The position numbers and the translations under genes were made by a program. A stretch of 11,074 nt of DNA. It comes from Candidatus Krumholzibacteriia bacterium. GTDB taxonomy: Bacteria > Krumholzibacteriota > Krumholzibacteriia > WVZY01. The notes under the pieces are model-generated. The model had not been told where the DNA came from and searched no databases. It saw only the letters and a list, made by a program, of their open reading frames with translations. Positions 2 through 11,074 of this stretch are shown piece after piece; position 1 is the first letter of the stretch; each line of letters opens with the position of its first letter. The stretch is from the NCBI GenBank assembly GCA_036478295.1, contig JAZGDW010000251.1, positions 1 to 11,074 on the forward strand. Direction: 5' to 3'.

Positions 2-526
2 GGTTCGCACCTGGGACTGAACATTTCCAGAACCCTTGCCGAAGTTCAAAACGGAACCATGGCCGTCGAGAGCGAACCGGGTGTGGGGACCGAAGTGAGC
101 GTGTTTCTGCCCGTAGACCCCTCCACAGCTGAGATCGTCGGCCGCTTCAAGTCGATCGAGCGCTGTTTTTTTACTCACCTGCGCAAGGGCGTTTTTGTGT
201 ACGCACTCCACAAGTACGAATCCAAACGATGGCCAGAGATCGTCCAGCAGTGGGCAAGAACGCCGGTGATAAACCCCGAGAAGCGCGATGAACGGGAATC
301 CAATCTTTTCCTGTGGACCCTGGGAGAGGACGTAGCCGTGGCGGTCGGCGCTCGTGAAGACGACCCCGGGCTGGTCAGCGGAGGGTTGGGCGGAAGCTGG
401 GCCACCTCCGTGCAGGGCTACATGGTTGGGCGCTCCTTTGCGCCAACCGAGGGTTCCCGAATGACCCAGCTGATAAACCTGGCTTTCAGCCGAATGAAGA
501 ACGCATCGCCGGTTCTGACCCGGTGA
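2..526 (+). CDS. Sensor histidine kinase, C-terminal fragment (end of HATPase_c domain plus ~135-aa C-terminal extension); 5'-truncated by the window edge
   Basis: The frame is open from nt 2 and reads GSHLGLNISRTLAEVQNGTMAVESEPGVGTEVSVFLP. This matches the G2 box/helix and the final 'G.i.veS..G.Gt.f...lP' strands of HATPase_c. The ATG at 59 is internal. A response regulator follows directly. Confidence 0.85.
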   Translation, partial: GSHLGLNISRTLAEVQNGTMAVESEPGVGTEVSVFLPVDPSTAEIVGRFKSIERCFFTHLRKGVFVYALHKYESKRWPEIVQQWARTPVINPEKRDERESNLFLWTLGEDVAVAVGAREDDPGLVSGGLGGSWATSVQGYMVGRSFAPTEGSRMTQLINLAFSRMKNASPVLTR

Positions 527-552: not shown

Positions 553-954
553 ATGGAAAACATAAGGATTCTTCTGGTCGATGACGAGCAGGATATCGTG
601 GACACGATAAAGTACAGTCTCGAGCTGAGGGGCTATGATGTCGATGTTGCGTACGACGGAGTGAGCGCGTTGGCCAAAGCCCGCAAGGGACTCTATAATG
701 TGCTCTTGCTGGATGTGATGCTTCCGGGCAAGAACGGCTACGAAGTGTCGCGCCTGCTCAAAGAGGATATGGCCAAGAACCACATCGCTTCCTTCGGGAT
801 TATCCTCATTACCGCCAGACGACTCGATACCGAAGTGCGCGAGGAGTTTGTGGCCACGTGGTCCAAAGCCGACGCGTGTATCTACAAGCCCTTTGAAATG
901 GAGGATCTCACCGACACCATCACTTCGTTGCTGGAGGCCGTCGTGTCGTCGTAA
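553..954 (+). CDS. Single-domain response regulator (CheY-like receiver)
   Basis: Receiver motifs ILLVDDE, LLLDVMLPGKNG (phospho-Asp), IILITA and YKPF are present, with no output domain. AGAGGAG at 538-544 lies 8 nt before ATG 553, which is favoured over the GTG at 544. Confidence 0.93.
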   Translation: MENIRILLVDDEQDIVDTIKYSLELRGYDVDVAYDGVSALAKARKGLYNVLLLDVMLPGKNGYEVSRLLKEDMAKNHIASFGIILITARRLDTEVREEFVATWSKADACIYKPFEMEDLTDTITSLLEAVVSS

Positions 955-1042: not shown

Positions 1043-1056
1043 TTGACAAATCTCAA
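1043..1056. promoter_or_regulatory. Putative FNR/CRP-family binding site (it also contains a perfect TTGACA hexamer)
   Basis: TTGAC-AAAT-CTCAA matches TTGAT-N4-ATCAA at 8/10 positions and lies in the AT-rich spacer upstream of the Rieske gene. Confidence 0.45.
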
Positions 1057-1134: not shown

Positions 1135-1566
1135 ATGCCGGCAACTCGCCGCCAGTTCACGAATCTGCTCCTTGGAGGCGGCCTCATCGGTTGGCTGGGC
1201 AGCGTGGTGTACCCCATCGTCTCGTATCTCAAGCCGCCCGAGGTCCCGGAAGCCAACGTGCAGACGGTCAACGCGGGCCCGGCGGCGGAGTTCGAGCCCA
1301 ACGCGGGCCAGATCATCAAGTTCGGTCGCCTGCCCGTCATCGTCATCAAGACGGCCACCGGTGATTTCAGGGCGTTTTCGGCGACCTGCACGCATCTGGA
1401 CTGTATCGTTCAATACCGCTCCGATCTCAGGCAGATCTGGTGCGCCTGTCATAACGGGCTCTATGACCTCAAGGGACGCAACGTCTCGGGACCGCCCCCG
1501 CGGCCGCTGGATGAATTCGCCGTCAACATCGTCAACGACGAAGTGCTCGTATCCAGGCTGGCGTAA
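1135..1566 (+). CDS. Rieske [2Fe-2S] subunit of a Rieske/cytochrome b complex (PetC/QcrA-like)
   Basis: Tat-type TRRQF motif followed by a hydrophobic anchor, Rieske boxes CTHLDC and CACHNGLY, and a GPPPRPL loop. RBS AAGGGGGA at 1123-1130 precedes ATG 1135. Confidence 0.96.
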   Translation: MPATRRQFTNLLLGGGLIGWLGSVVYPIVSYLKPPEVPEANVQTVNAGPAAEFEPNAGQIIKFGRLPVIVIKTATGDFRAFSATCTHLDCIVQYRSDLRQIWCACHNGLYDLKGRNVSGPPPRPLDEFAVNIVNDEVLVSRLA

Positions 1567-1576
1567 GGAACAATGA

Positions 1577-2656
1577 ATGCCAAGGAAACGTCAGAGAATC
1601 TTTGGGTGGCTGGATGAGCGTTTTCACATCAGCCCCCTGATCGAGTTCATGCGGCACAAGAAGGTGCCCGTACACCGGCACACCGTGTGGTACTACATGG
1701 GAGGTGTCGCCCTCTTCTTGTTTGTCGTGCAGGTGGCGACCGGTATTCTGCTCGTGCTCTACTATCAGGCGGACGAGGAAGCCGCGTTCGAGAGCGTTCG
1801 TTTTCTCATGACGAAGGTGCCGTTCGGTTGGCTGATCCGCTCGATACACAGCTGGGCAGCGAACCTGATGGTGCTCTTCGTGTTTATCCACATGTTCAGC
1901 ACGTTCTTCACCAGGGCGTTCCGTAAGCCGCGTGAGCTGACCTGGGTCAGCGGGTTCACGCTCCTCGCGCTGGCGTTGTTTTTTGGCTTTACGGGCTACC
2001 TGCTGCCGTGGAACGAGCTGTCCTTTTTTGCCACGAAAGTGGGGACCGACATCGCGGGTGCGGTACCGTTCATTGGTAACGCGATCAAGGTCGTGTTGAG
2101 GGGCGGTGAGGATGTCACCGGGGCGACGCTCTCCCGCTTCTACGCCATTCATATCGCCATCATTCCCGCAATTTTCACAGCCATACTGGTCCTGCACCTG
2201 CTCTTCGTACAACGGCAGGGCATGCACGAGCCGGAGTATGTCGCCAAATTGCCCAGTGACAAGAAGAAGATGATTTCTTTTTTCCCAAACTTTTTGATGA
2301 GGGATATGTTGCTGTGGCTCATGGTCTTGAACGTCCTTATCTTTCTGGCCGTGTTCTTTCCCTGGGAACTCGGCCACAAAGCCGACGCGTTCGCGCCGGC
2401 TCCATCGGGCATCAAGCCAGAGTGGTTCTTCATGTTCATGTTTCAGACGCTGAAAGTCCTGCCGGCCCACATTTTGTTCATGGAAGGGGAGGTGCTGGGC
2501 ATTCTGTTCTTCGGACTGGTCGGCGTCGCGTGGATGCTGGTCCCGTTCTGGGAGATAAAACATCGTCCGGACAAGAGAGTGCGACCCATGACGGTCATCG
2601 GAGTCACGGCGATCCTGTACATAGTCGTCATGACGATCTGGGGTTATCTTGAATAG
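1577..2656 (+). CDS. Cytochrome b of a Rieske/cytochrome b complex (unsplit b6 + subunit IV type; PetB/QcrB-like)
   Basis: Heme b ligand pairs RSIHSW...FIHMF and AIHIA...VLHLL, plus RKPRELTW, GYLLPW, TLSRFY, FFPNF and the Qo motif IKPEWF. Lies 10 nt downstream of the Rieske gene. Confidence 0.96.
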   Translation: MPRKRQRIFGWLDERFHISPLIEFMRHKKVPVHRHTVWYYMGGVALFLFVVQVATGILLVLYYQADEEAAFESVRFLMTKVPFGWLIRSIHSWAANLMVLFVFIHMFSTFFTRAFRKPRELTWVSGFTLLALALFFGFTGYLLPWNELSFFATKVGTDIAGAVPFIGNAIKVVLRGGEDVTGATLSRFYAIHIAIIPAIFTAILVLHLLFVQRQGMHEPEYVAKLPSDKKKMISFFPNFLMRDMLLWLMVLNVLIFLAVFFPWELGHKADAFAPAPSGIKPEWFFMFMFQTLKVLPAHILFMEGEVLGILFFGLVGVAWMLVPFWEIKHRPDKRVRPMTVIGVTAILYIVVMTIWGYLE

Positions 2657-2669
2657 AAGAGGACATGCG

Positions 2670-3938
2670 ATGGTCAATCATGGACCGCCAATAATCACCA
2701 TCAGTCTGGCGGTTGCACTTGTAACACTCCTGGTCTTGCCCGTGCCAGGCCTGGGGCAGGAAGAGGCGGTCGTCGCATCAGATCAGTGCGTGGCGTGCCA
2801 CAGTGACCTCGAGGTCTTGCCTCACGATTATATCGTGGAAGATGTTCACATGAAGGCGGGACTGGGCTGTGCCGGCTGCCACGGTGGTGACCCCATGTCG
2901 GACGACGACGAAGTGGCGATGTCGCCGAAGGCCGGCTACGTCGGCGCGCCCGCAAAGAAGGATATCTCGAAGTTCTGCGGCAAGTGTCATTCCGACATCG
3001 AATTTATGAGGCGCTACCAACCTAGAATTCCTACCGACCAGGCCAGCCAGTACGCGACGAGTGTCCATGGGATCCGCCTCGCGCGGGGCGACGAAAACGT
3101 GGCCGACTGTACGAGCTGCCACACTGCGCACGGGATTCTCGCGGTCAAGGACTCGCGCTCGTCCGTGTATGCGCTGAACGTTCCCGCTACCTGCAATAAG
3201 TGCCACGGCGATGCCAAGCTCATGAGCGGCTACGGAATACGGACCGACCAGTACGAGAAGTATGCCCAGAGCGTCCACGGCAAGGCGCTTCTCGAGAACC
3301 AGGATGTGGGTGCCCCGGCGTGCAACGACTGCCACGGCAACCATGGGGCGATGCCACCGGGCATCACCTCGGTGAGACAGGTCTGTGGCCACTGCCACGT
3401 CAATAACATGCAGTTTTTCACCGCGTCGAAAATGGGGGCGGCGTTCGACAGGGAGGAATTGCATGGGTGCGAAGAATGTCACGGTAATCACGATGTCAAG
3501 AGGACAGCGGACGACATGGTCGGTATCGGAGACGCCGCCGTGTGCATCGACTGTCATGACGAAGGCGACAAGGGTTATGAGACCGCCGGCAAGATCAGCG
3601 GGCTGCTGACCGCGCTGACAACGGTCTACGATCAGGCCGAGACGAAGCGGGAGGAAGTTAGCCGCATCGGCATGGATGACGAGGAGATAGGTTTCGTCCT
3701 GCAGGAAGCCCACCAGAGCCTGATCCAGGCCCGGACGTTGGTGCACACGTTCGATGACGTTAAGGTCGGCGTGCAGACCTCCGCAGGCACCGCGAAGGCC
3801 CAGGAGGCGCTGGACCTGGCGATCGAGCAGATCCAGGAGCACGGCGTCCGCCGGCGCGGATTCGGCCTGGCCACCATTTTCATTACTATCCTCGTGATCG
3901 CGCTCTTCCTGAAGATCCGGCAGCTGCCCGACAGCTAG
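2670..3938 (+). CDS. Membrane-anchored nonaheme cytochrome c, the probable electron-acceptor subunit of the Rieske/cyt b complex
   Basis: N-terminal signal-like hydrophobic stretch; 9 CxxCH motifs (CVACH, CAGCH, CGKCH, CTSCH, CNKCH, CNDCH, CGHCH, CEECH, CIDCH); helical C-terminal region; C-terminal TM helix FGLATIFITILVIALFL. AGAGGA before ATG 2670 favours this start over TTG 2649. Confidence 0.92.
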   Translation: MVNHGPPIITISLAVALVTLLVLPVPGLGQEEAVVASDQCVACHSDLEVLPHDYIVEDVHMKAGLGCAGCHGGDPMSDDDEVAMSPKAGYVGAPAKKDISKFCGKCHSDIEFMRRYQPRIPTDQASQYATSVHGIRLARGDENVADCTSCHTAHGILAVKDSRSSVYALNVPATCNKCHGDAKLMSGYGIRTDQYEKYAQSVHGKALLENQDVGAPACNDCHGNHGAMPPGITSVRQVCGHCHVNNMQFFTASKMGAAFDREELHGCEECHGNHDVKRTADDMVGIGDAAVCIDCHDEGDKGYETAGKISGLLTALTTVYDQAETKREEVSRIGMDDEEIGFVLQEAHQSLIQARTLVHTFDDVKVGVQTSAGTAKAQEALDLAIEQIQEHGVRRRGFGLATIFITILVIALFLKIRQLPDS

Positions 3939-3993
3939 GCGCTTGTTTTCGCCAGCGGACGGGGCGTCGCGGGGCAGGCAATCACTTAACTAT

Positions 3994-4007
3994 TTGATAA
4001 GAATCAA
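3994..4007. promoter_or_regulatory. FNR-type (CRP/FNR family) binding site, perfect consensus
   Basis: TTGAT-AAGA-ATCAA is a 10/10 match to TTGAT-N4-ATCAA. Its centre (4000.5) is about 61.5 nt upstream of the predicted start site near 4062. Confidence 0.7.
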
Positions 4008-4027
4008 TTTATTTGGGCGTTCTTGTT

Positions 4028-4056
4028 TTGCCAAACATACGCGATCAGTTTATAAT
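4028..4056 (+). promoter_or_regulatory. sigma70-type promoter of the tetraheme cytochrome gene
   Basis: TTGCCA (4028-4033), 17 nt, TATAAT (4051-4056), within an AT-rich spacer. Confidence 0.8.
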
Positions 4057-4061
4057 ACAGT

Positions 4062-4079
4062 AAGAGAACGATTTCACAA
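4062..4079. promoter_or_regulatory. Putative Rex-like operator overlapping the predicted transcription start
   Basis: AAGAGAA-CGAT-TTCACAA (reverse complement TTGTGAA-ATCG-TTCTCTT) matches the Rex consensus at 11/14 positions with one perfect half-site, and is 13/18 identical to the site at 1098-1115. Confidence 0.5.
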
Positions 4080-4103
4080 TCTCTGGGAGGGAGGAGAGAG
4101 AAA

Positions 4104-4685
4104 ATGAGTAAGTTATTGACTGGGATAGTGTTGGTGGCTTGCGCCGTCCTGTGGTGTACCCCGAGTTCCGCAAATGGGGACCAGCGGACGTACCTGGGGG
4201 CTGCCAAGTGTAAGATGTGCCACAAGACGCCGGCCCAGGGCGAGCAGTTCGGAATCTGGCAAAAAGGGCCGCACGCGGGAGCGTACGAGTCTCTGGCCAG
4301 TGAAAAGGCCATGGAGGTCGCCAAGAAGCAGGGGATAGAGGATCCACAAAAGGCGGATGCCTGTCTCAAGTGCCACGTGACCGCCCACGGTGTCGATGCC
4401 GAATACCTTGGTCCGAAATACGCGATAACCGACGGCGTCGGCTGCGAGTCCTGCCACGGCGCCGGCAGCGACTACAGCAAGAAGAAGGCGATGGTGGCGG
4501 TCACCTCGGGAAAGGCGGAGGGGGCCTCGGTCGGTCTGATCAAACCGACCAAGGAAACCTGCGTCACCTGCCACAACGAAGAGAGTCCGTTCTACAAGGA
4601 ATTCGACTTCGAGAAGATGTTTGCGAAGATCAAGCACTCGGTGCCCGAGGAACGAAAGGCCAAATACAAGACCGTATCAGAGTGA
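4104..4685 (+). CDS. Exported tetraheme cytochrome c, cytochrome c554-like family
   Basis: Signal peptide; 4 CxxCH motifs (YLGAAKCKMCH, CLKCH, GVGCESCHGAGS, CVTCH); W..gpHa.A pattern and terminal IKH typical of the c554-like family; strong RBS GGAGGGAGGAG. Confidence 0.9.
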   Translation: MSKLLTGIVLVACAVLWCTPSSANGDQRTYLGAAKCKMCHKTPAQGEQFGIWQKGPHAGAYESLASEKAMEVAKKQGIEDPQKADACLKCHVTAHGVDAEYLGPKYAITDGVGCESCHGAGSDYSKKKAMVAVTSGKAEGASVGLIKPTKETCVTCHNEESPFYKEFDFEKMFAKIKHSVPEERKAKYKTVSE

Positions 4686-4742
4686 CCAACAAGACCCAGC
4701 AAGCTTGACGCGTATTGCGTGTGAAGCAGCCATGACGGCAAG

Positions 4743-4776
4743 AGGGACCGGGGATAATCGCCGGTCCCTTTTTCTT
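4743..4776 (+). terminator. Rho-independent terminator between the convergent blocks
   Basis: Perfect 9-bp stem AGGGACCGG (4743-4751) / CCGGTCCCT (4761-4769) with a 9-nt loop, followed by TTTTCTT. The U-tract on the - strand is weak, so bidirectional use is uncertain. Confidence 0.85.
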
Positions 4777-4809
4777 GGAGCTTGTAACTGGGGTTTGTAA
4801 CATAGTGCG

Positions 4810-7638
4810 CTAATTGTATCCGAACAGCACCGAGTAGATTATCAGGCAGGTCAGGACGATGCCGATCGTGAGAAACGTGTAACCCGCCAAACGGATCATC
4901 GTCTCGTATCGCTTAGAGATCACTTTCGTTACCACCCGTTTTCGCAGTTCTCCCGATCGCTTGAGTTCCTCATAGGCCTCGGGACGGTCGCTCTTGTAGT
5001 GCTCGAGTGGGACCACACCGGTAAAGACTACCGTGTCCATGGGAAACGCTTCCGGCCTCAAATGTGTATTGAAGAAATGCACGGTGAAGATGAAGCCGAC
5101 GGCGAGCAACGCTTCATCGCTGTGAATGATCGTGGCTACATTGATCAACCAGCCCGGGACGAACTTGGTAAAGAGCACCGGAAACCACAACATGAGCCCG
5201 GACGCGCCGATGATCGCGACACCCCAGAACACGGCCATATAGTCGAATTTCTCCCAGTAGGTCCAACGACCGTAGTTCGGCCTGGGTCCCTTGCCAAAGA
5301 ACCATTTCAAAGTCCCGACAAAATCGATAACGTCCTTCCTGTTGAACATCATCGATCCTTTTCCCAATATGAGCTCGCGCCAGCTGATTCGCCGCTTGCG
5401 CTTGTACCTGGCCAGAGATGTCAGATGAAACGCAAAATAACCGAAGGTTATCACCGCCGCGACGCGATGGATAACACCGGCTGTTTGCACGCCCCCCAGC
5501 AGGTTGGCGATGAATGCGGCCCACGGCATCCCGGAGAATTTCAACATCATCCCGGTAAGAGCGAGAGACATGAAGCTTACGATGACACAGAGGTGCGTCA
5601 GACGCTGCGGGAGGGTGAAGCGTTTTATGTAATGACGGCCATGGGGCTTACTTTTCACGGCCTTTTGTTCTCGCATGAGTTTGAAGGAGCGCGGTAGCCA
5701 CAGTAGAGTGTGCACGCCAAAAAAACCAAAGACGCCGATCAACAACCAGGTCATCGTCCAGTACGTGTAGTAGAGAATGGGGTACTTGACCGGATCGTGG
5801 TGCGTGGCATGAGTCAGGTAGCCCGTAAAGCGCGCGTTGGCGTCTTCGTGACACTTTTGGCAGGTGGTCACGATATTTCTGAAACCGACCGTCGAATTGG
5901 GATCATTGTGGCTCAAGATCATGTGGGCGCCGTGGCAGTCCGAGCACTTGGCCGCTTGCAGGTAGCCGAGCCGGTACGCCTTGCCGTGCATGGTTTCGAG
6001 GTACGTGTCACCGAGATGCGTGTGGCACGAGCCGCACTGCTCCGTAACCTCGGTCATGAACTGGTCTTTCTCCACCTCTCCGATGGTGTGCGAGGAATGG
6101 CAGTCCGCGCAGTTGGGCAGCTTGCCCTCATGCTCCCCGTCCGCCGAATAATGCACACTCTTGATGTACTGTTTGTAGATTCCCCTGTGACATCCGGCAC
6201 ACGTCGCCGGAACGTTCTTGGCGAAGACCGTTGAGCGCTCGTCGGTGTGTTTCAAGACCATATGCGAGCCGTGGCAGTCGATACAGATGGCGCTCGGCAG
6301 GAGCCCCTTTTCCGTCAGGCCTCGCCCGTGGACGCTCCGCGAGTAGTCGGCGAGCGCGGTGGTTTCGGTGAGATCCGCCACCTGCGCCGCCTTGCCTCCC
6401 TCCCGATGGCAATCACCGCACAGCTCGGGCACCGATGCCCGGAACGTGGCGGCTGTCTCGTCGCGATGGGACCTCGTACCGTGCTCGCCGTGGCAGGTCG
6501 TGCAGTACGGCGCCTCGCTTATACCGTTGACGTGGGCCACGCCGTGGCCGCTCGTATAGTATTCCTCCGAGATTTTCGCATGACAGTTCGAGCAGTCGAT
6601 CTTTCCGGCGGGCTCGCACGGCCGCTTCAGGCGGGGGTCGATATCGACGTGGCATTTGACACACGGGATGTTCTCATGGACCGACCGCGCGATAGCACTC
6701 CGGTCCACGGTCATCGACAGGGTGTCCCCCGCAACGATCTTGTGTACATCCGTCTTTTCGTGGCACTTCAGGCAGGCGCGATCGGAAACAGTGAGCGCGA
6801 CGATGTCCTTGCGCACCTTGTGCGGCAGGTGGCAGTCCGTGCACGCGGGGATCGCACCCGGTGCGGTCTCCCATAACTCGCCGCGGATCACCTTTGCGTG
6901 GACGTCCTCGATCCTCGAATGGCACTGCATGCAGGTTGCCGCTATGTTGCGGGGTGAAATAGACGCCCTCGGATCGGTGTGCGGCAGGATGAGATGACTA
7001 CGATGGCAGCTGGTGCAGGTGGCGGTGACGATGAGGCCCTTTTCAAAGAGTCCCTCGCCGTGGATGCTCTGGCTGTAGTTTTCGACGATATTGTGGGCCG
7101 ATATATCGTAAACACTGGCCACGGGCGCGCCCTCACGGTGGCAGCGGCCGCACAGGTACGGGACATTCATCTTGCGGGTTGGCGACGCCGCGTCTTGCGG
7201 AGAGAGAATATCGTGCACGCCGTGGCAATCCGTGCAGCGGGGGGCGTACGGGGCTTTGCGGTTCGCCGCCTTGCCGTGGATGCTCGCGTCATAGTCGAGC
7301 TGTGCGTCGTCGTGGCACATCCCGCAGTTGACCCACTCGAGCGCTTCGGGATGGGGAAGGTCCTCCACATCCGCGTCTTCATGGCAGTCGATGCACTCGA
7401 GGTCGCGGTGGACCGACCTCAGGAAGACCGCGTTATCTACATAAGCGGAAACGGACCGCCCCGCCCGCGTTCCTTTCAGGTCGGGGTCGGAATGACAATC
7501 GAGGCAGGTTTCGTTGTCCACGGAGGAGAGAGCCGGTGACGACAACGCGAACAGCAAGAGAGCCGCCGCGGCAAGTGCACTTGCAACTTGCCTCCACGGT
7601 GCCGGTTTCTCAAGGCTGCGTTCCGGTATGGCATTCAT
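4810..7638 (-). CDS. CbcL-like fusion: 19-heme periplasmic cytochrome c domain plus C-terminal FdnI/HydC-type diheme cytochrome b (putative quinol:cytochrome c oxidoreductase)
   Basis: Signal peptide (...[13 protein letters not shown]); 19 CxxCH motifs; membrane domain with [10 protein letters not shown]...[23 protein letters not shown] and [26 protein letters not shown] 7638 is preferred over 7731 because it follows GGGAG/AGGA, precedes the signal peptide, and overlaps the upstream gene by only 29 nt. Confidence 0.92.
6085..7510 (-). repeat. Internal tandem duplication (protein level) of an 8-heme module in the CbcL-like gene: copy A ~6820-7510, copy B ~6085-6780
   Basis: Collinear motifs between copies: [12 protein letters not shown] / [23 protein letters not shown] / [23 protein letters not shown] / [27 protein letters not shown] / [28 protein letters not shown] / [21 protein letters not shown] / LPNCADCH. 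Confidence 0.85.
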
Positions 7639-9121
7639 AACATCCTGTCTCCCGCCACTCCTCGTCGATGTCTTCTGGATGAACGAACTCCAGTCCGTCC
7701 TGCGAGGTGGCCATCTGCGCACGCTCGCCACTGCCCTGAGACAGAATACTGTGACACGTCTTGCAATCCCGCGTGATCACCCACCCCTCGTCGCTGACCT
7801 TGTTACCGTCATGGCAGCGCATGCAACCCGGAAAAATGAAGTGACCGATGTTGTCCGGGTAGTGTTCCCAGCGAACCTTCATCTCTGGAAAGATGTTTTC
7901 GGAAAACTGGCGCTGGGTTGCCAGCACAGCCTGCTCGATCGCGACGCTGCGGTTGCGTGAAATATCTGGATAGTTTTCCCGGTAGAAATCAGGGATCTGC
8001 ATCGCCATGATGCGAAGAGCCTCGGGTTCCGTCTCGTAGTCTCCCTGCATCGCTTCCACGGCCACGCGCTTGATTTCGGGCAGCGTCCGGTCGATCTGCC
8101 CGGTGAGAATCGCCCGGTCTACGAGGTAGTCCGGCGAGCGGAACTTATGGCTGGGTCGGTTGTGGCAATCCATGCAGTCCATCCCCCGGGGCGTCAGCTC
8201 CCCCAGTTCTTCCTCGGTAAGGGGGTTTCCGCTATCCTGGTACACGGTCTGTCTCCCCGTTATGCGGTCCGTCACGCGGATCCAGGGAATATTCTGGCGC
8301 TCTTCATCCCGGGCTATGTATTCGACGCCGACGCCGATGTTCATGTGCCAGTGGATGCCGGCGGTCTGGCCGGTTTTCGGGTCGCCACCACCGGTTTTTA
8401 TCAGCATGTTAATCGGCCACGCGGAACTGCTGTCGTCGTAGACAAAATGATTGAACTGCCTCTGTTGCGCGCCGAAGAACTTACGCGGCCAGTGGCATTG
8501 TTCGCACGTTTCCTGGGCGGGGCGGAGGTTCTTGATCGGTGTTGGAATGGGCCGCGGGAATTTCTTGGCTGCCACCGCGTAAACCTGATAGGCCCCGGAG
8601 AGTTTCGACTTGGCATACCAGCCGGCGCCCTCACCCACGTGACAAGCCGTGCAGGCGACGCGCGCGTGCGGGGAGTTCTGGTATGCAGTGTGCTCGGGCT
8701 TCATCACCGAGTGACAGGTTTCGCCGCAAAACGCGACGGACTCGGTGTGGTGATAGGCGTGATAGGCCCCGACCGCGCTGAGTGACGCGTAGAGAAAACC
8801 GCCGATGATAAAAACCGTGAACGCGTTCCGATGGGTGCGTTTGCTGAAGTCGATGTAGGCCCACTGGGATGGATCTGGACCGCCGCGCCGTTTGGCGGCT
8901 TTCCACTGGCGGTACATGCCGATGGGAACCAGTATCAGTCCCGTCAGCAGGATCGGGGGCAGAACCATGTAGATAAAAATGCCGAGGTAGGGATTCGCTT
9001 CACCCGCCCCGGCCTGGACGAGCAGAAAGAACACCATCGTCATGGCGGTGATCACCGCCAGAAATCCGCCCGCGATGCTGAGCTTATTGTATACGAGTCT
9101 CGGAAACCGGAACCCCGCCAT
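7610..9121 (-). CDS. ImcH-like heptaheme NapC/NirT-family inner-membrane cytochrome c (quinol dehydrogenase)
   Basis: Three N-terminal TM helices; FCGETCHSVM (CX3CH); SPHARVACTACH; YAKSKLSG; CEQCH; CMDCHNRPSH; PGCMRCHDG; CKTCH; CYECH, giving 7 heme motifs in 503 aa. RBS GGGGGAG precedes ATG 9121. Confidence 0.88.
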   Translation of the reverse strand: MAGFRFPRLVYNKLSIAGGFLAVITAMTMVFFLLVQAGAGEANPYLGIFIYMVLPPILLTGLILVPIGMYRQWKAAKRRGGPDPSQWAYIDFSKRTHRNAFTVFIIGGFLYASLSAVGAYHAYHHTESVAFCGETCHSVMKPEHTAYQNSPHARVACTACHVGEGAGWYAKSKLSGAYQVYAVAAKKFPRPIPTPIKNLRPAQETCEQCHWPRKFFGAQQRQFNHFVYDDSSSAWPINMLIKTGGGDPKTGQTAGIHWHMNIGVGVEYIARDEERQNIPWIRVTDRITGRQTVYQDSGNPLTEEELGELTPRGMDCMDCHNRPSHKFRSPDYLVDRAILTGQIDRTLPEIKRVAVEAMQGDYETEPEALRIMAMQIPDFYRENYPDISRNRSVAIEQAVLATQRQFSENIFPEMKVRWEHYPDNIGHFIFPGCMRCHDGNKVSDEGWVITRDCKTCHSILSQGSGERAQMATSQDGLEFVHPEDIDEEWRETGCYECHTGTQP

Positions 9122-9149
9122 AATGCTCCCCCAAACGTTGCTGTTCTCT

Positions 9150-10421
9150 CTACGTTACAGCGGGCGGGCTCTCCATGCCACTGTTTCCGGCGAGATCCTC
9201 TCGGTCCGGCAACTCATGTCCCGGTCCCCCCGGCTGCCGATTCTCGTCCCAGGGTGGCAGTATGCGGAGAAGTACGTAGAGTATGATGAATGGAAGCGTC
9301 AGAAGCGCAATAGACGTCAGGAGCCCCTCCACTCCGAAGAACGACATTTTGTACACGGTGAGCCCCCGGAAACTCTTCGAAAACAACTGCCCGCCAATAA
9401 CGACGTTCCAGCGCGTCGAGAAAATACCCACCTGGACAAGCAGGGCAGAGACAAAGTAAACCAGTTTTCTCAACTCGCCCGGCGCCTTTGAGAGCTTTAT
9501 CGCCGCGATCGCAAACAGGGGTATCAACATGCCGATGAGCAGCTGGATGACCACGAGGCTGACAAACAGTTTGCCCGACACGAGCGTGCTGATGATCTTG
9601 ATGGATTCCTCCGATTCGTACACGCGGTGCACGAAGTCAAGTAGCTCCAGGGAGAAGTCCACGATCATCGCATAGAAGAGAAAGCTGGCAAGCTTGTCCA
9701 GGCAGATCATATCGACCACCCTTGAGCGCAACGGCGTCACGATCATGTATATGAGCAGCACCAGCGCGATGCCGGAGACGATTGCGGAGAACAGAAAAAC
9801 GATGGGCATGAGCACACTCGACCACCAGGGGTTTGCCTTGACCGAGCCAAAGATGAAGCCCACGTAGCCGTGCAGCAGAAATGCGGAAGGTATGCCGATG
9901 ATGGTCAGCACTTTCGCAGCCTTCCTGTCAAATCGCATGGCACGTTCGGATATATCGGATGAAAAGAGCGAGAGCGCCCTGTGAAGCCACTTTCGTGGCC
10001 CCCGTTCGGCCCTGGCCCAGAGGATGATGTCTCTTCTGTAATCAAACCAGATTTCGAGCAGCAAGACGGCCATCAAGTACCACGCGTAGACAAAACCGAA
10101 CATCGCCATCGCGGAACTCTTGTTGGGAGTCAGGAATATCTCGAATGATTTCTCCGGATGGACCAGGTGGGCGACCAGCGGTAGCGGGGCCACCAGGAGA
10201 AAGGCCAGCGCTGTTAGGAGCGACAAGCGGTACACGGGTTTCACCTCGGTGGCGTTGAACACCTTGACCAGCGATGCGAGGATGAACGCGCCCGCGACCA
10301 GACCCGTCACGTACGGATAGACCACGATGAGGATGCTCCAGTGCAGCTCGATCTCATTGGGGTAAATGTACCCCGAAATCTCTTTCATAATACCTGCCAG
10401 GTGTTCAACGACTCCTCCCAA
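9150..10421 (-). CDS. NrfD/PsrC-family integral membrane protein (quinone-interacting subunit)
   Basis: W.ilIvvYPYVTGLVAG start, HLVHPEK, SSAMA, YVGFIFGSVKANPWW, P.vFlfSAivSG and RWNVVIGGQ, with many TM helices. The TTG start at 10421 has a GGAGGTG RBS inside the end of the upstream gene; ATG 10388 is an alternative. Confidence 0.93.
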   Translation of the reverse strand: MGGVVEHLAGIMKEISGYIYPNEIELHWSILIVVYPYVTGLVAGAFILASLVKVFNATEVKPVYRLSLLTALAFLLVAPLPLVAHLVHPEKSFEIFLTPNKSSAMAMFGFVYAWYLMAVLLLEIWFDYRRDIILWARAERGPRKWLHRALSLFSSDISERAMRFDRKAAKVLTIIGIPSAFLLHGYVGFIFGSVKANPWWSSVLMPIVFLFSAIVSGIALVLLIYMIVTPLRSRVVDMICLDKLASFLFYAMIVDFSLELLDFVHRVYESEESIKIISTLVSGKLFVSLVVIQLLIGMLIPLFAIAAIKLSKAPGELRKLVYFVSALLVQVGIFSTRWNVVIGGQLFSKSFRGLTVYKMSFFGVEGLLTSIALLTLPFIILYVLLRILPPWDENRQPGGPGHELPDREDLAGNSGMESPPAVT

Positions 10422-10423
10422 GG

Positions 10424-11074
10424 TTAATTCACCTCCCGGTCCAGATTCGCGTAGAAAACCTTGGGCTCGGTGTTGAGCGATGGCTTCAAGACTCCAATCT
10501 TGTTCATACGCATAAACCTCGTCAGTGGACTCGCCTTCTTGTCGAGTTCACCAAACACCCTGGCCTGAGTGGGGCATACTTCGACGCAAGCCGGTACCTG
10601 CCCTTTTACGATACGGTGGTAGCAGAAAGTGCACTTCTCGGCCGTGCGAGTCTCCGGGTTGAGGAAACGCGCGCCGTACGGGCACGCCTGGATGCAGTAA
10701 CGGCAGCCGATACAGTAGTCGGAGTCGACCAGGACAACGCCGTCGGGAGTCTTGAACGTCGCCCCGACCGGACAGACCTGAACGCACGGCGGATTGTCGC
10801 AATGGTTGCACAGTTTGGGAACGAAAAAGCTCCGGATGGTATCCTTTTCGGTGGCCTCGTACCCGAAACTCTTCATGGCGCCGTTGGGACTGTCTACGAC
10901 CACCTCACCATCGAATTCGATGCGGTACCGTTCGACCCAGGTTCTGAAGAAGAAAGGATCTTTGGGTACGCCGTTTTCGTTTTTGCAGGCCTCGACACAA
11001 CGGCCGCACCCGATGCACTTGTTTATATCGATTGCCATGCCCCAACGGTGTTCGCTCGGTCTGTAGCCTTTGCC
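10424..11074 (-). CDS. NrfC/PsrB/DmsB-like 4x[4Fe-4S] ferredoxin subunit; 5'-truncated by the window edge
   Basis: Cys groups CIGCGRCVEAC, CNHCDNPPCVQVCP, CIGCRYCIQACP and CTFC...PACVEVCP. The frame stays open to nt 11074 (GKGYRPSEHRWGMAID...), so the ATG at 11038 is probably internal. Confidence 0.94.
   Translation of the reverse strand, partial: GKGYRPSEHRWGMAIDINKCIGCGRCVEACKNENGVPKDPFFFRTWVERYRIEFDGEVVVDSPNGAMKSFGYEATEKDTIRSFFVPKLCNHCDNPPCVQVCPVGATFKTPDGVVLVDSDYCIGCRYCIQACPYGARFLNPETRTAEKCTFCYHRIVKGQVPACVEVCPTQARVFGELDKKASPLTRFMRMNKIGVLKPSLNTEPKVFYANLDREVN

Follow-up and report, generated by a model that had tools for sequence, protein, structure and literature searches.

The 11,074-nucleotide stretch analysed here (the window) is the entire contig JAZGDW010000251.1 (C170) of a Candidatus Krumholzibacteriia bacterium, whose genome (G000) spans 3.5 Mb and is 91% complete. 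The window is the inner-membrane half of a cytochrome cluster of about 17 kb, and the outer half lies on another contig of the same genome (C197). The four quinone-pool modules of the window and the linked, predicted outer-membrane conduit probably carry menaquinol electrons outward to extracellular acceptors, with the direction as a prediction, and the locus is a candidate for a complete menaquinol-to-surface pathway. A preliminary description of the window had named the four modules, counted 39 heme c motifs, arranged them in two convergent blocks around a soluble tetraheme cytochrome (plus strand 1135-4685, minus strand 4810-11074) and guessed at extracellular electron transfer. Intact frames, Pfam and NCBIfam labels and four ImcH residues at Geobacter numbering bear out its account of the genes, and the guess gains a linked decaheme-porin-lipoprotein set as well as CcmF-type and menaquinone genes. 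The idea that the packing is new, an island, was not supported: this kind of cluster has been in print since 2013, and is here more complete than the window alone shows.

Inner-membrane modules

What does the window encode? Every gene listed below is an intact open frame, except that of NrfC, which is truncated by the contig end, and Pfam and NCBIfam models back each label.

1135..1566, plus strand: Rieske [2Fe-2S] protein, 143 amino acids (PF00355, TM_PetC), boxes CTHLDC and CACHNGLY
1577..2656, plus strand: unsplit cytochrome b, 359 amino acids, 7 hydrophobic segments, His91/105/192/207, PEWF
2670..3938, plus strand: nonaheme cytochrome c, 9 CXXCH, N-terminal signal and C-terminal membrane anchor by hydropathy
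4104..4685, plus strand: soluble tetraheme cytochrome, c554-like (PF13435 E 1e-19; PDB c554 E 3e-9)
4810..7638, minus strand: CbcL/MtrH/MtoC-family fusion, 942 amino acids, 19 heme c motifs and a C-terminal cytochrome b domain, by motif count and domain search
7610..9121, minus strand: ImcH-family heptaheme cytochrome, 503 amino acids, three N-terminal membrane helices, CX3CH and six CXXCH
9150..10421, minus strand: NrfD/PsrC-family membrane subunit (PF03916 E 5e-39)
10424..11074, minus strand: NrfC/PsrB-family 4Fe-4S protein, 5' end missing, by profile matches

The 39 heme c motifs are 38 CXXCH (9+4+19+6) and one CX3CH (CGETCH, residues 132-137 of the ImcH-like protein), which was counted following the definition of the ImcH family (PMC6295460). 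Shuffled proteins (2,000 each) hold 0.01-0.10 motifs on average and 2 at most, so the density of motifs is not due to chance. The window contig has 38 of the 141 motifs in the 34 open reading frames of the genome with at least two motifs.

The plus-strand block has the features of a Rieske/b complex, that is two Rieske boxes, four heme b histidines, a PEWY-like motif (PEWF) and a gene spacing of 10 bp. A Ser in Rieske box II marks high-potential proteins, and its absence low-potential, menaquinol-type ones. Box II here has no Ser at the potential-raising position, and the motif is kept in relatives, which by this rule suggests a menaquinol-type complex. The nonaheme cytochrome c stands in for cytochrome c1/f, and its gene lies downstream of Rieske/b in relatives and in other phyla. 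The c554-like tetraheme is predicted from its sequence to be a periplasmic shuttle. Two other multihemes of the genome, a tetraheme (C129:36847-37548) and a hexaheme protein (C271:12478-15423), end in tails resembling outer-surface sorting signals; a homologue of the tetraheme sits between conduit and Rieske block in the relative G004.

Members of the CbcL/MtrH/MtoC family have a published range of 3-23 heme motifs in the N-terminal c domain, and the 19 motifs of the fusion fall within it. With 19 c hemes versus nine, it is not Geobacter CbcL proper, for which V205/F525 are described as a potential switch. Its b domain scores 28.1 bits with Ni_hydr_CYTB, just below the Pfam cut-off of 30.1, and a simple scan gave four strong hydrophobic segments where six are expected. 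His643/682/724/738/839/854/859 are conserved in 120/120 homologues. One weak match was all that a structure search by sequence returned, and when the homologues were searched for a short CbcL of the Geobacter type, no named Geobacter protein turned up.

The ImcH family is defined by three N-terminal membrane helices and a length of 495-519 amino acids (PMC6295460). The ImcH-like protein has hydrophobic segments at 16-34, 47-65 and 100-118, with CX3CH next to the membrane domain and six CX2CH, as is characteristic of the family. Five quinol-site or heme-1 residues are named in Geobacter ImcH (E127, H137, K173, Q179 and Y188; bioRxiv 2023.05.03.539133). The first four occur here at identical numbering, and residue 188 is Phe instead of Tyr, as in 18/80 homologues. 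A further hallmark of the family is that it is needed for respiration above -0.1 V. No solved structure matched the protein by sequence. In a quickly built tree of 92 rows, with 3 duplicates removed and Geobacter not represented, it forms a clade with a Krumholzibacteriia-titled record (support 100), with a Zixibacteria-titled clade as sister (support 92). A metagenome locus (L161) encodes an 807-amino-acid, 18-heme protein 46% identical to ImcH, a long ImcH fusion exceeding the published heme range, between Rieske/b/nonaheme and octaheme/NrfC/NrfD genes.

NrfC and NrfD have no catalytic partner adjoining them in the window, and those of the relative G011 likewise have no adjacent molybdopterin or NrfA gene. 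An octaheme gene lies upstream of NrfC in 5/5 relatives mapped, and an octaheme-like cytochrome was matched in 54 of 80 metagenome NrfD loci. The metagenome scan with NrfD gave no near-identical locus, the best being 78%.

The linked, predicted outer-membrane conduit

Where might electrons leave the periplasm? In relatives, genes for a decaheme, a protein of about 530 amino acids and a 6-7-heme protein adjoin the cluster, and their homologues in this genome stand at the end of C197. The preliminary description saw neither porin nor terminal enzyme; this is right for the window, but a set of porin-cytochrome genes begins some 3.2 kb beyond it. The flank and genome search that it proposed found the candidate conduit on C197 and, for heme c maturation, a CcmF-type lyase gene. 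The two contigs are joined by a public contig of 22,592 bp (run X3, depth 25.7) from a relative about 94% identical. The window corresponds to its positions 4251-15317, with 617 other letters in 11,074, and the end of C197, reversed, to 17893-22592, which leaves a gap of 2,575 bp. In all, the locus measures about 16.9 kb, and its sequenced part contains 59 heme motifs. No contig of the genome itself extends either side of the gap, which by its size presumably holds the rest of a 13-heme bc fusion, the octaheme gene and the start of NrfC (2,620-2,640 bp).

C197 end, past the gap: start of a second bc-type multiheme gene, truncated by the contig end, and a divergent promoter that holds a perfect FNR-type box
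C197:21216-22169: MtrA-like decaheme, 10 motifs, best PDB match 6R2Q chain A (E 2e-19, residues 39-289)
C197:19627-21216: predicted porin, 529 amino acids, modelled as a 26-strand barrel
C197:18508-19599: hexaheme lipoprotein, 363 amino acids, Cys23 after the signal peptide, NrfA/OcwA fold

Chains A and B of 6R2Q are MtrA and MtrB, and MtrB has 26 strands. The decaheme scores 162.5 bits with TIGR03508, below the cut-off of 192.2. The barrel model has a pLDDT of 89, and its best Foldseek match is 6R2Q chain B (E 2e-16, TM 0.72; next match E 7e-8). By sequence the porin gave no Pfam or NCBIfam match and no solved structure. PF11854 misses the porin itself, and 4 of the 16 homologues scanned pass its cut-off, those four having been chosen for that mark. 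A close porin homologue is present in 25/35 same-order genomes, yet the porin has no Pfam or NCBIfam match, so marker surveys would miss it. In the lipoprotein, Cys23 is invariant in 121 sequences, CXXCK occurs in 0/121, and seven conserved extra His and a Met are available for six hemes. Its best profile match and best Foldseek match are both OcwA. A complex prediction for porin and lipoprotein scored 0.00, which counts neither way. Assignment of the lipoprotein as NrfA, in an NrfA/HAO operon, was rejected because it has no CXXCK and a genome search with PF02335 at E 0.001 gave no match. A tRNA-Phe gene (L116:15157-15232) directly follows the lipoprotein gene on the same strand.

Distribution and module mixing

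The comparison covered 35 genomes of the same order, one of which (G001) belongs to the same genus. Full ImcH was found in 19/35, the 19-heme fusion in 19/35, a close cytochrome b in 22/35, a close porin (at least 35% identity) in 25/35 and full NrfD in 10/35; these counts exclude ImcH fragments (G001, G006, G022), a partial NrfD (G012) and, for six genomes, porins that are only distantly similar (24-28%). ImcH and the 19-heme fusion are neighbours in 15/16. Thirteen genomes have ImcH, fusion, cytochrome b and porin, and the four lie within 15 kb in 6 of them; in several of the other 7 a contig end interrupts the region. Of the five relatives with both NrfD and ImcH, one has the two side by side. 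In all 12 mapped loci listed (G000, G001, G006, G007, G013, G014, G015, G016, G018, G023, G025 and G031), the lipoprotein gene comes directly after the porin gene.

Among 80 ImcH loci of a genome collection, three of them same-order relatives, 41 have no further module within the DNA available for the locus, 20 have one, 19 two and none three. Clustering of modules is common, and the four-module form is rare. The closest named homologues of the linked porin and lipoprotein carry Candidatus Krumholzibacteriia labels, and two runs of one marine-sediment study carry pieces 90-99% alike. This conduit type reaches beyond Krumholzibacteriia, since an Ignavibacteriaceae-titled locus (L017) combines genes of the Rieske block with those for ImcH, tetraheme, lipoprotein, porin and decaheme.

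The modules are split, reordered or lost among relatives, and the notion that they form one large complex was therefore rejected. A recently acquired island was rejected as well, since the GC content (58%) resembles that of the genome (60%) and the ImcH tree follows host kinship, although the tRNA-Phe gene next to the lipoprotein gene is a point to set against this. The natural variants make up a comparative series: the full set here, no NrfCD in most genomes, and only Rieske/b in G001. In the last (C18; L123:4966-5945), two deletions left mere remnants of imcH and cbcL, with one heme motif decayed; it keeps the tetraheme and the conduit, to which the Rieske block is joined directly, and Rieske/b/nonaheme is the sole intact quinol exit beside it. 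G013 (C7:148000-152600; 96% complete, 20 contigs) has a full conduit and gave no match to ImcH, a CbcL-type protein, cytochrome b or NrfD, and another quinol exit must then feed its conduit. A distant second decaheme-porin subfamily (24-28% identity) occurs in G011, G002 and G008 (L140, L141, L150); in G008 an 8-heme protein follows the pair instead of the hexaheme.

Promoter boxes and respiratory context

Is there any sign of common regulation? TTGAT-N4-ATCAA, the FNR consensus, was searched for in the window and the genome. The remaining features of the window are:

2..526, plus strand: histidine kinase 3' end (HATPase_c tail), truncated by the contig start and probably belonging to the locus; in G014, G015, G023 and G031 the cluster has kinase/regulator homologues on its flanks
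553..954, plus strand: single-domain response regulator (PF00072 E 2e-18); a 63-69% identical copy is directly upstream of imcH in G014, G023 and G031
1043..1056: FNR/Crp-type box that departs from the consensus at one position, 92 bp upstream of the Rieske gene
3994..4007: FNR/Crp-type box TTGAT-N4-ATCAA without mismatch; G001, G004 and G007 have a similar box in front of the corresponding gene
4028..4056, plus strand: sigma-70-like promoter, 11/12 consensus, pattern match only
4750..4769, plus strand: putative terminator, hairpin and T tail between the two convergent blocks, by pattern match

The genome has 12 perfect boxes, and other spacers gave 1-8. Two of the 12 are within the locus and one is before the nar locus; two in the locus has a post-hoc Poisson p of about 0.002, a value inflated by AT-rich intergenic DNA. 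With at most one mismatch, boxes precede the Rieske gene in 3/15, the tetraheme gene in 4/15 and the decaheme gene in 6/15 regions, and internal genes in 0/56; the 15 regions count G001 twice, and all boxed regions are in family f1. Terminator-like sites in the window number 10 versus 9.3 by chance and are not enriched. The kinase/response-regulator pair (2-954) travels with the cluster; in family f2 it stands upstream of imcH, in the window upstream of the Rieske gene.

Menaquinone genes are present in the genome (PF02621, 3 matches). It also has ActA/ActB- or Qrc-like genes and a bd-like match, and the Nar, Nap-like and AioA-like loci each carry their own partner genes. RuBisCO, NiFe hydrogenase and NrfA were not found in this 91% complete genome, and a crude scan gave no Cyc2-like frame. 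On C72 (1-4306; L126), genes for two MauG-like diheme peroxidases, a Rieske protein and an AioA-like molybdoenzyme stand in a row, and second copies of the peroxidase-like genes are on C221. In gene content the row resembles the idr iodate reductase cluster; we know of no report of an idr-type cluster in this lineage.

Comparison with known systems

The closest published case is Zixibacteria RBG-1, for which Castelle et al. 2013 (PMC3903129) list a 'putative iron respiration pathway' cluster, RBG1_768-781, with MtrA-like and MtrB-like proteins, two monohemes, a 4Fe-4S protein, NrfD, 13-, 11-, 19-, 6- and 9-heme proteins, petB and petA. Compared by inventory, the same set is present here (decaheme, porin, Fe-S/NrfD, 19-heme bc, 6-CXXCH, nonaheme, petB and petA). 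The likeness extends to a 19-heme c/2-heme b fusion (926 amino acids versus 942 here), the adjoining 6-CXXCH cytochrome (478 versus 503), petB (359 in both), an 11-heme protein annotated as a formate-dehydrogenase-type b fusion, and a genome that also has ACIII and an aa3 oxidase. In contrast, RBG-1 was reported to have no extracellular cytochrome, with two monohemes and a 13-heme protein instead, whereas a hexaheme lipoprotein and a c554-like tetraheme are found here; the Fe-S protein is annotated as HmcB-like, the gene order differs, and ImcH and CbcL are not named. Other Zixibacteria-titled loci have homologues 41-66% identical in like clusters. The preliminary description had held that an already characterised cluster would undo its reading, and this is partly so: the RBG-1 cluster is described, but not experimentally characterised.

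The same four module types occur in Geobacter sulfurreducens as ImcH, CbcL, Cbc3 (CbcVWX) and Cbc4 (CbcSTU). ImcH has the same architecture, with four of five named quinol-site residues matching. Midpoint potentials measured for Geobacter ImcH and CbcL lie between -350 and -40 mV. The Rieske/b block is of the Cbc3 module type, but its c subunit is a nonaheme with a C-terminal anchor, so it is not Cbc3, the c subunit of which (in CbcVWX) is a pentaheme. NrfC/NrfD match the Cbc4 pattern of an Fe-S protein and an NrfD-type subunit without a catalytic subunit, and the position of CbcS falls in the gap. Further differences are the 19 hemes in the bc fusion, an octaheme before NrfC in relatives instead of the tetraheme CbcS, a c554-like instead of a PpcA-type shuttle, the single locus, and a host that is a predicted facultative aerobe. 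For Cbc3-6 of Geobacter, activity as quinol:cytochrome c oxidoreductases is a prediction, and no role has been assigned to them. The Geobacter cluster extHIJKLMNOPQS (Cbc6; PMC5877670) likewise unites a porin-like gene, multihemes, Rieske and cytochrome b in one conserved cluster, with an unrelated small porin, a split cytochrome b (the ExtP model is below cut-off) and no ImcH, CbcL or NrfD. The accession numbers of ImcH and CbcL from Desulfuromonas acetexigens follow one another directly (PMC12133095), another packing of modules already on record.

MtrCAB of Shewanella (6R2Q) and mtrCAB clusters with cymA, netBCD or mtoC (PMC8805035) share with the conduit a decaheme, a barrel of MtrB fold (here as a model) and a lipoprotein cytochrome, with quinol dehydrogenase genes alongside. 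The barrel here is 529 amino acids long versus 649, with 12% identity and no PF11854 match; there is no MtrC, and a hexaheme of NrfA/OcwA fold is in place of an MtrC/OmcA-type surface decaheme; and four or five inner-membrane modules accompany it versus one or two. The conduit would work like MtrCAB and is not a member. Zhong and Shi found no mtrAB next to imcH (PMC6295460). An NrfA-type heme core with a three-helix bundle is known for the cell-surface cytochromes OcwA of Thermincola potens (6I5B) and the Carboxydothermus ferrireducens S-layer undecaheme OmhA (6QVM). The lipoprotein here differs from them in having six hemes and 363 amino acids and in standing, in a diderm, beside a porin gene; identity is 20-23%.

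For Krumholzibacteria, iron cycling was proposed from OmcS and Cyc2 (bioRxiv 2020.09.22.307553). The literature search gave no account of the cluster in Krumholzibacteriota, though figures or supplements outside its reach could hold one, and no experimental test of such a cluster; the accessible part of PMC12545173 does not mention the lineage. Further background comes from PMC6703420, PMC13591261, PMC9769843, PMC11495043, PMC8235581 and PMC7005843.

Discussion

How might such a locus work? In the scheme that we favour as the probable one, the genes, heme motifs, linkage in a close relative, modelled folds and promoter boxes were observed, and the direction of flow, surface exposure, partners and tuning of potential are predicted. 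The acceptors would be, for example, Fe(III), Mn(IV) or humics, used when oxygen is scarce. The ImcH-like, CbcL-like, Rieske/b/nonaheme and (octaheme)/NrfC/NrfD modules would each take menaquinol electrons, as alternatives and not as one complex, and would differ in H+/e- yield, as in Geobacter. The second bc fusion that starts on C197 may be an additional menaquinol exit. The c554-like tetraheme or the 19-heme chain would bridge the periplasm, the decaheme would sit in the barrel as MtrA does in MtrB, and the lipoprotein would face outward and do the job of MtrC with an OcwA/OmhA-type fold. A Crp/Fnr-family regulator would induce both this locus and the one for nitrate reductase. The 'multi-potential' toolkit of the preliminary description is an analogy drawn from Geobacter. 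A Krumholzibacteria genome, with different marker genes, made up 9.1% of the reads in a reactor supplied with Fe(III) (bioRxiv 2020.09.22.307553).

Several observations weigh against this scheme. The window-C197 linkage was seen in a relative and not in this genome. In the fold search the lipoprotein scores level with cell-surface cytochromes (Z 14.5, 14.0) and with NrfA-type nitrite reductases (Z 12.6-13.0), and 6 of the 25 porin-bearing relatives gave no ImcH, CbcL or cytochrome b. As for regulation, the box test within the window was not significant (54/200 shuffles), FNR-type boxes were not found in family f2, among the 10 perfect boxes outside the locus only one stands before a clear respiratory locus, and the Crp/Fnr protein of the genome (on C79) has Ser at the third N-terminal Cys position. 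The genome also has two A-type oxidases, an ACIII/Qrc-like complex, NarGH and NapA-like and AioA/IdrA-like enzymes, and these could accept the electrons inside the cell.

Could the cluster then be a general quinol-to-periplasm hub for soluble acceptors, in which Nap would serve nitrate, the AioA/IdrA-like enzyme iodate or arsenic and the oxidases O2, with the NrfA-fold lipoprotein as a periplasm-facing enzyme? The enzymes are in the genome, the fold tie with NrfA fits, modules are clustered in G002 and G011 with no close porin nearby, and across phyla the porin family stands beside ImcH in only 3/80 loci, two of them from same-order relatives. We regard this as rather unlikely: the lipoprotein gene keeps its place after the porin gene, the lipoprotein has no CXXCK and has extra His and Met enough for six hemes, and the Nar, Nap-like and AioA-like loci have partners of their own. 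Inward wiring, in which electrons from Fe(II), reduced humics or a partner cell would pass through the porin-cytochrome to the quinone pool and on to O2 or nitrate reductases, was favoured by Castelle et al. for RBG-1 as Fe(II) oxidation, since they saw no extracellular cytochrome (PMC3903129), which also speaks against outward flow. The CbcL family includes MtoC of Fe(II) oxidisers, other Krumholzibacteria carry cyc2 (bioRxiv 2020.09.22.307553), and two A-type oxidases, Nar and a Nap-like enzyme could serve such a chain. However, the RBG-1 argument rested on a missing extracellular cytochrome and a candidate one is present here; quinol oxidation is the only process in which ImcH has been implicated (PMC6295460); and neither RuBisCO and NiFe hydrogenase in the 91% complete genome nor a Cyc2-like frame in the crude scan was found. 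The Rieske protein also has no Ser of the high-potential kind. Inward flow is thus unlikely in our view.

The heme-rich chain may also be mainly a reversible electron store, or a two-way link, for a facultative aerobe in redox-swinging sediment, discharging to O2, nitrate or solids as each appears. The 59 sequenced motifs, with more in the gap, the 19-heme and 11-19-heme fusions exceeding the 9 hemes of Geobacter CbcL, and the coexistence of aerobic and anaerobic chains in the genome are in line with it, and a capacitor role is a published speculation for large multihemes. This is quite unlikely as the main function, since it has no direct evidence, leaves four chemically different quinol sites unexplained and overlaps with outward transfer.

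If outward transfer holds, a wider scenario may be drawn tentatively, and we think it somewhat doubtful as a whole. It would be a third three-part type of outer-membrane conduit, in Krumholzibacteriia: an MtrA-like decaheme in a compact 26-strand barrel missed by profile tools, capped by a surface lipoprotein of the OcwA/OmhA fold, which Gram-positive metal reducers are known to have, and fed by 4-5 quinol oxidoreductases tuned to different potentials, all encoded in a single 17-kb locus that anoxia induces. In that case the order would consist of widespread, overlooked, facultatively aerobic respirers of metals and humics, and the locus would be a single portable unit in which to study potential-dependent switching outside Geobacter.

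What is new here, beyond the published RBG-1 cluster, are the ImcH and CbcL assignments, the compact porin, a predicted surface lipoprotein of the kind reported absent in RBG-1, and the regulatory boxes. The candidate surface cytochrome reopens the question of direction for the RBG-1 cluster, as its absence had led to the iron-oxidation reading. If the outward reading is true, a common uncultured lineage of sediment and soil would join the metal-respiring guild.

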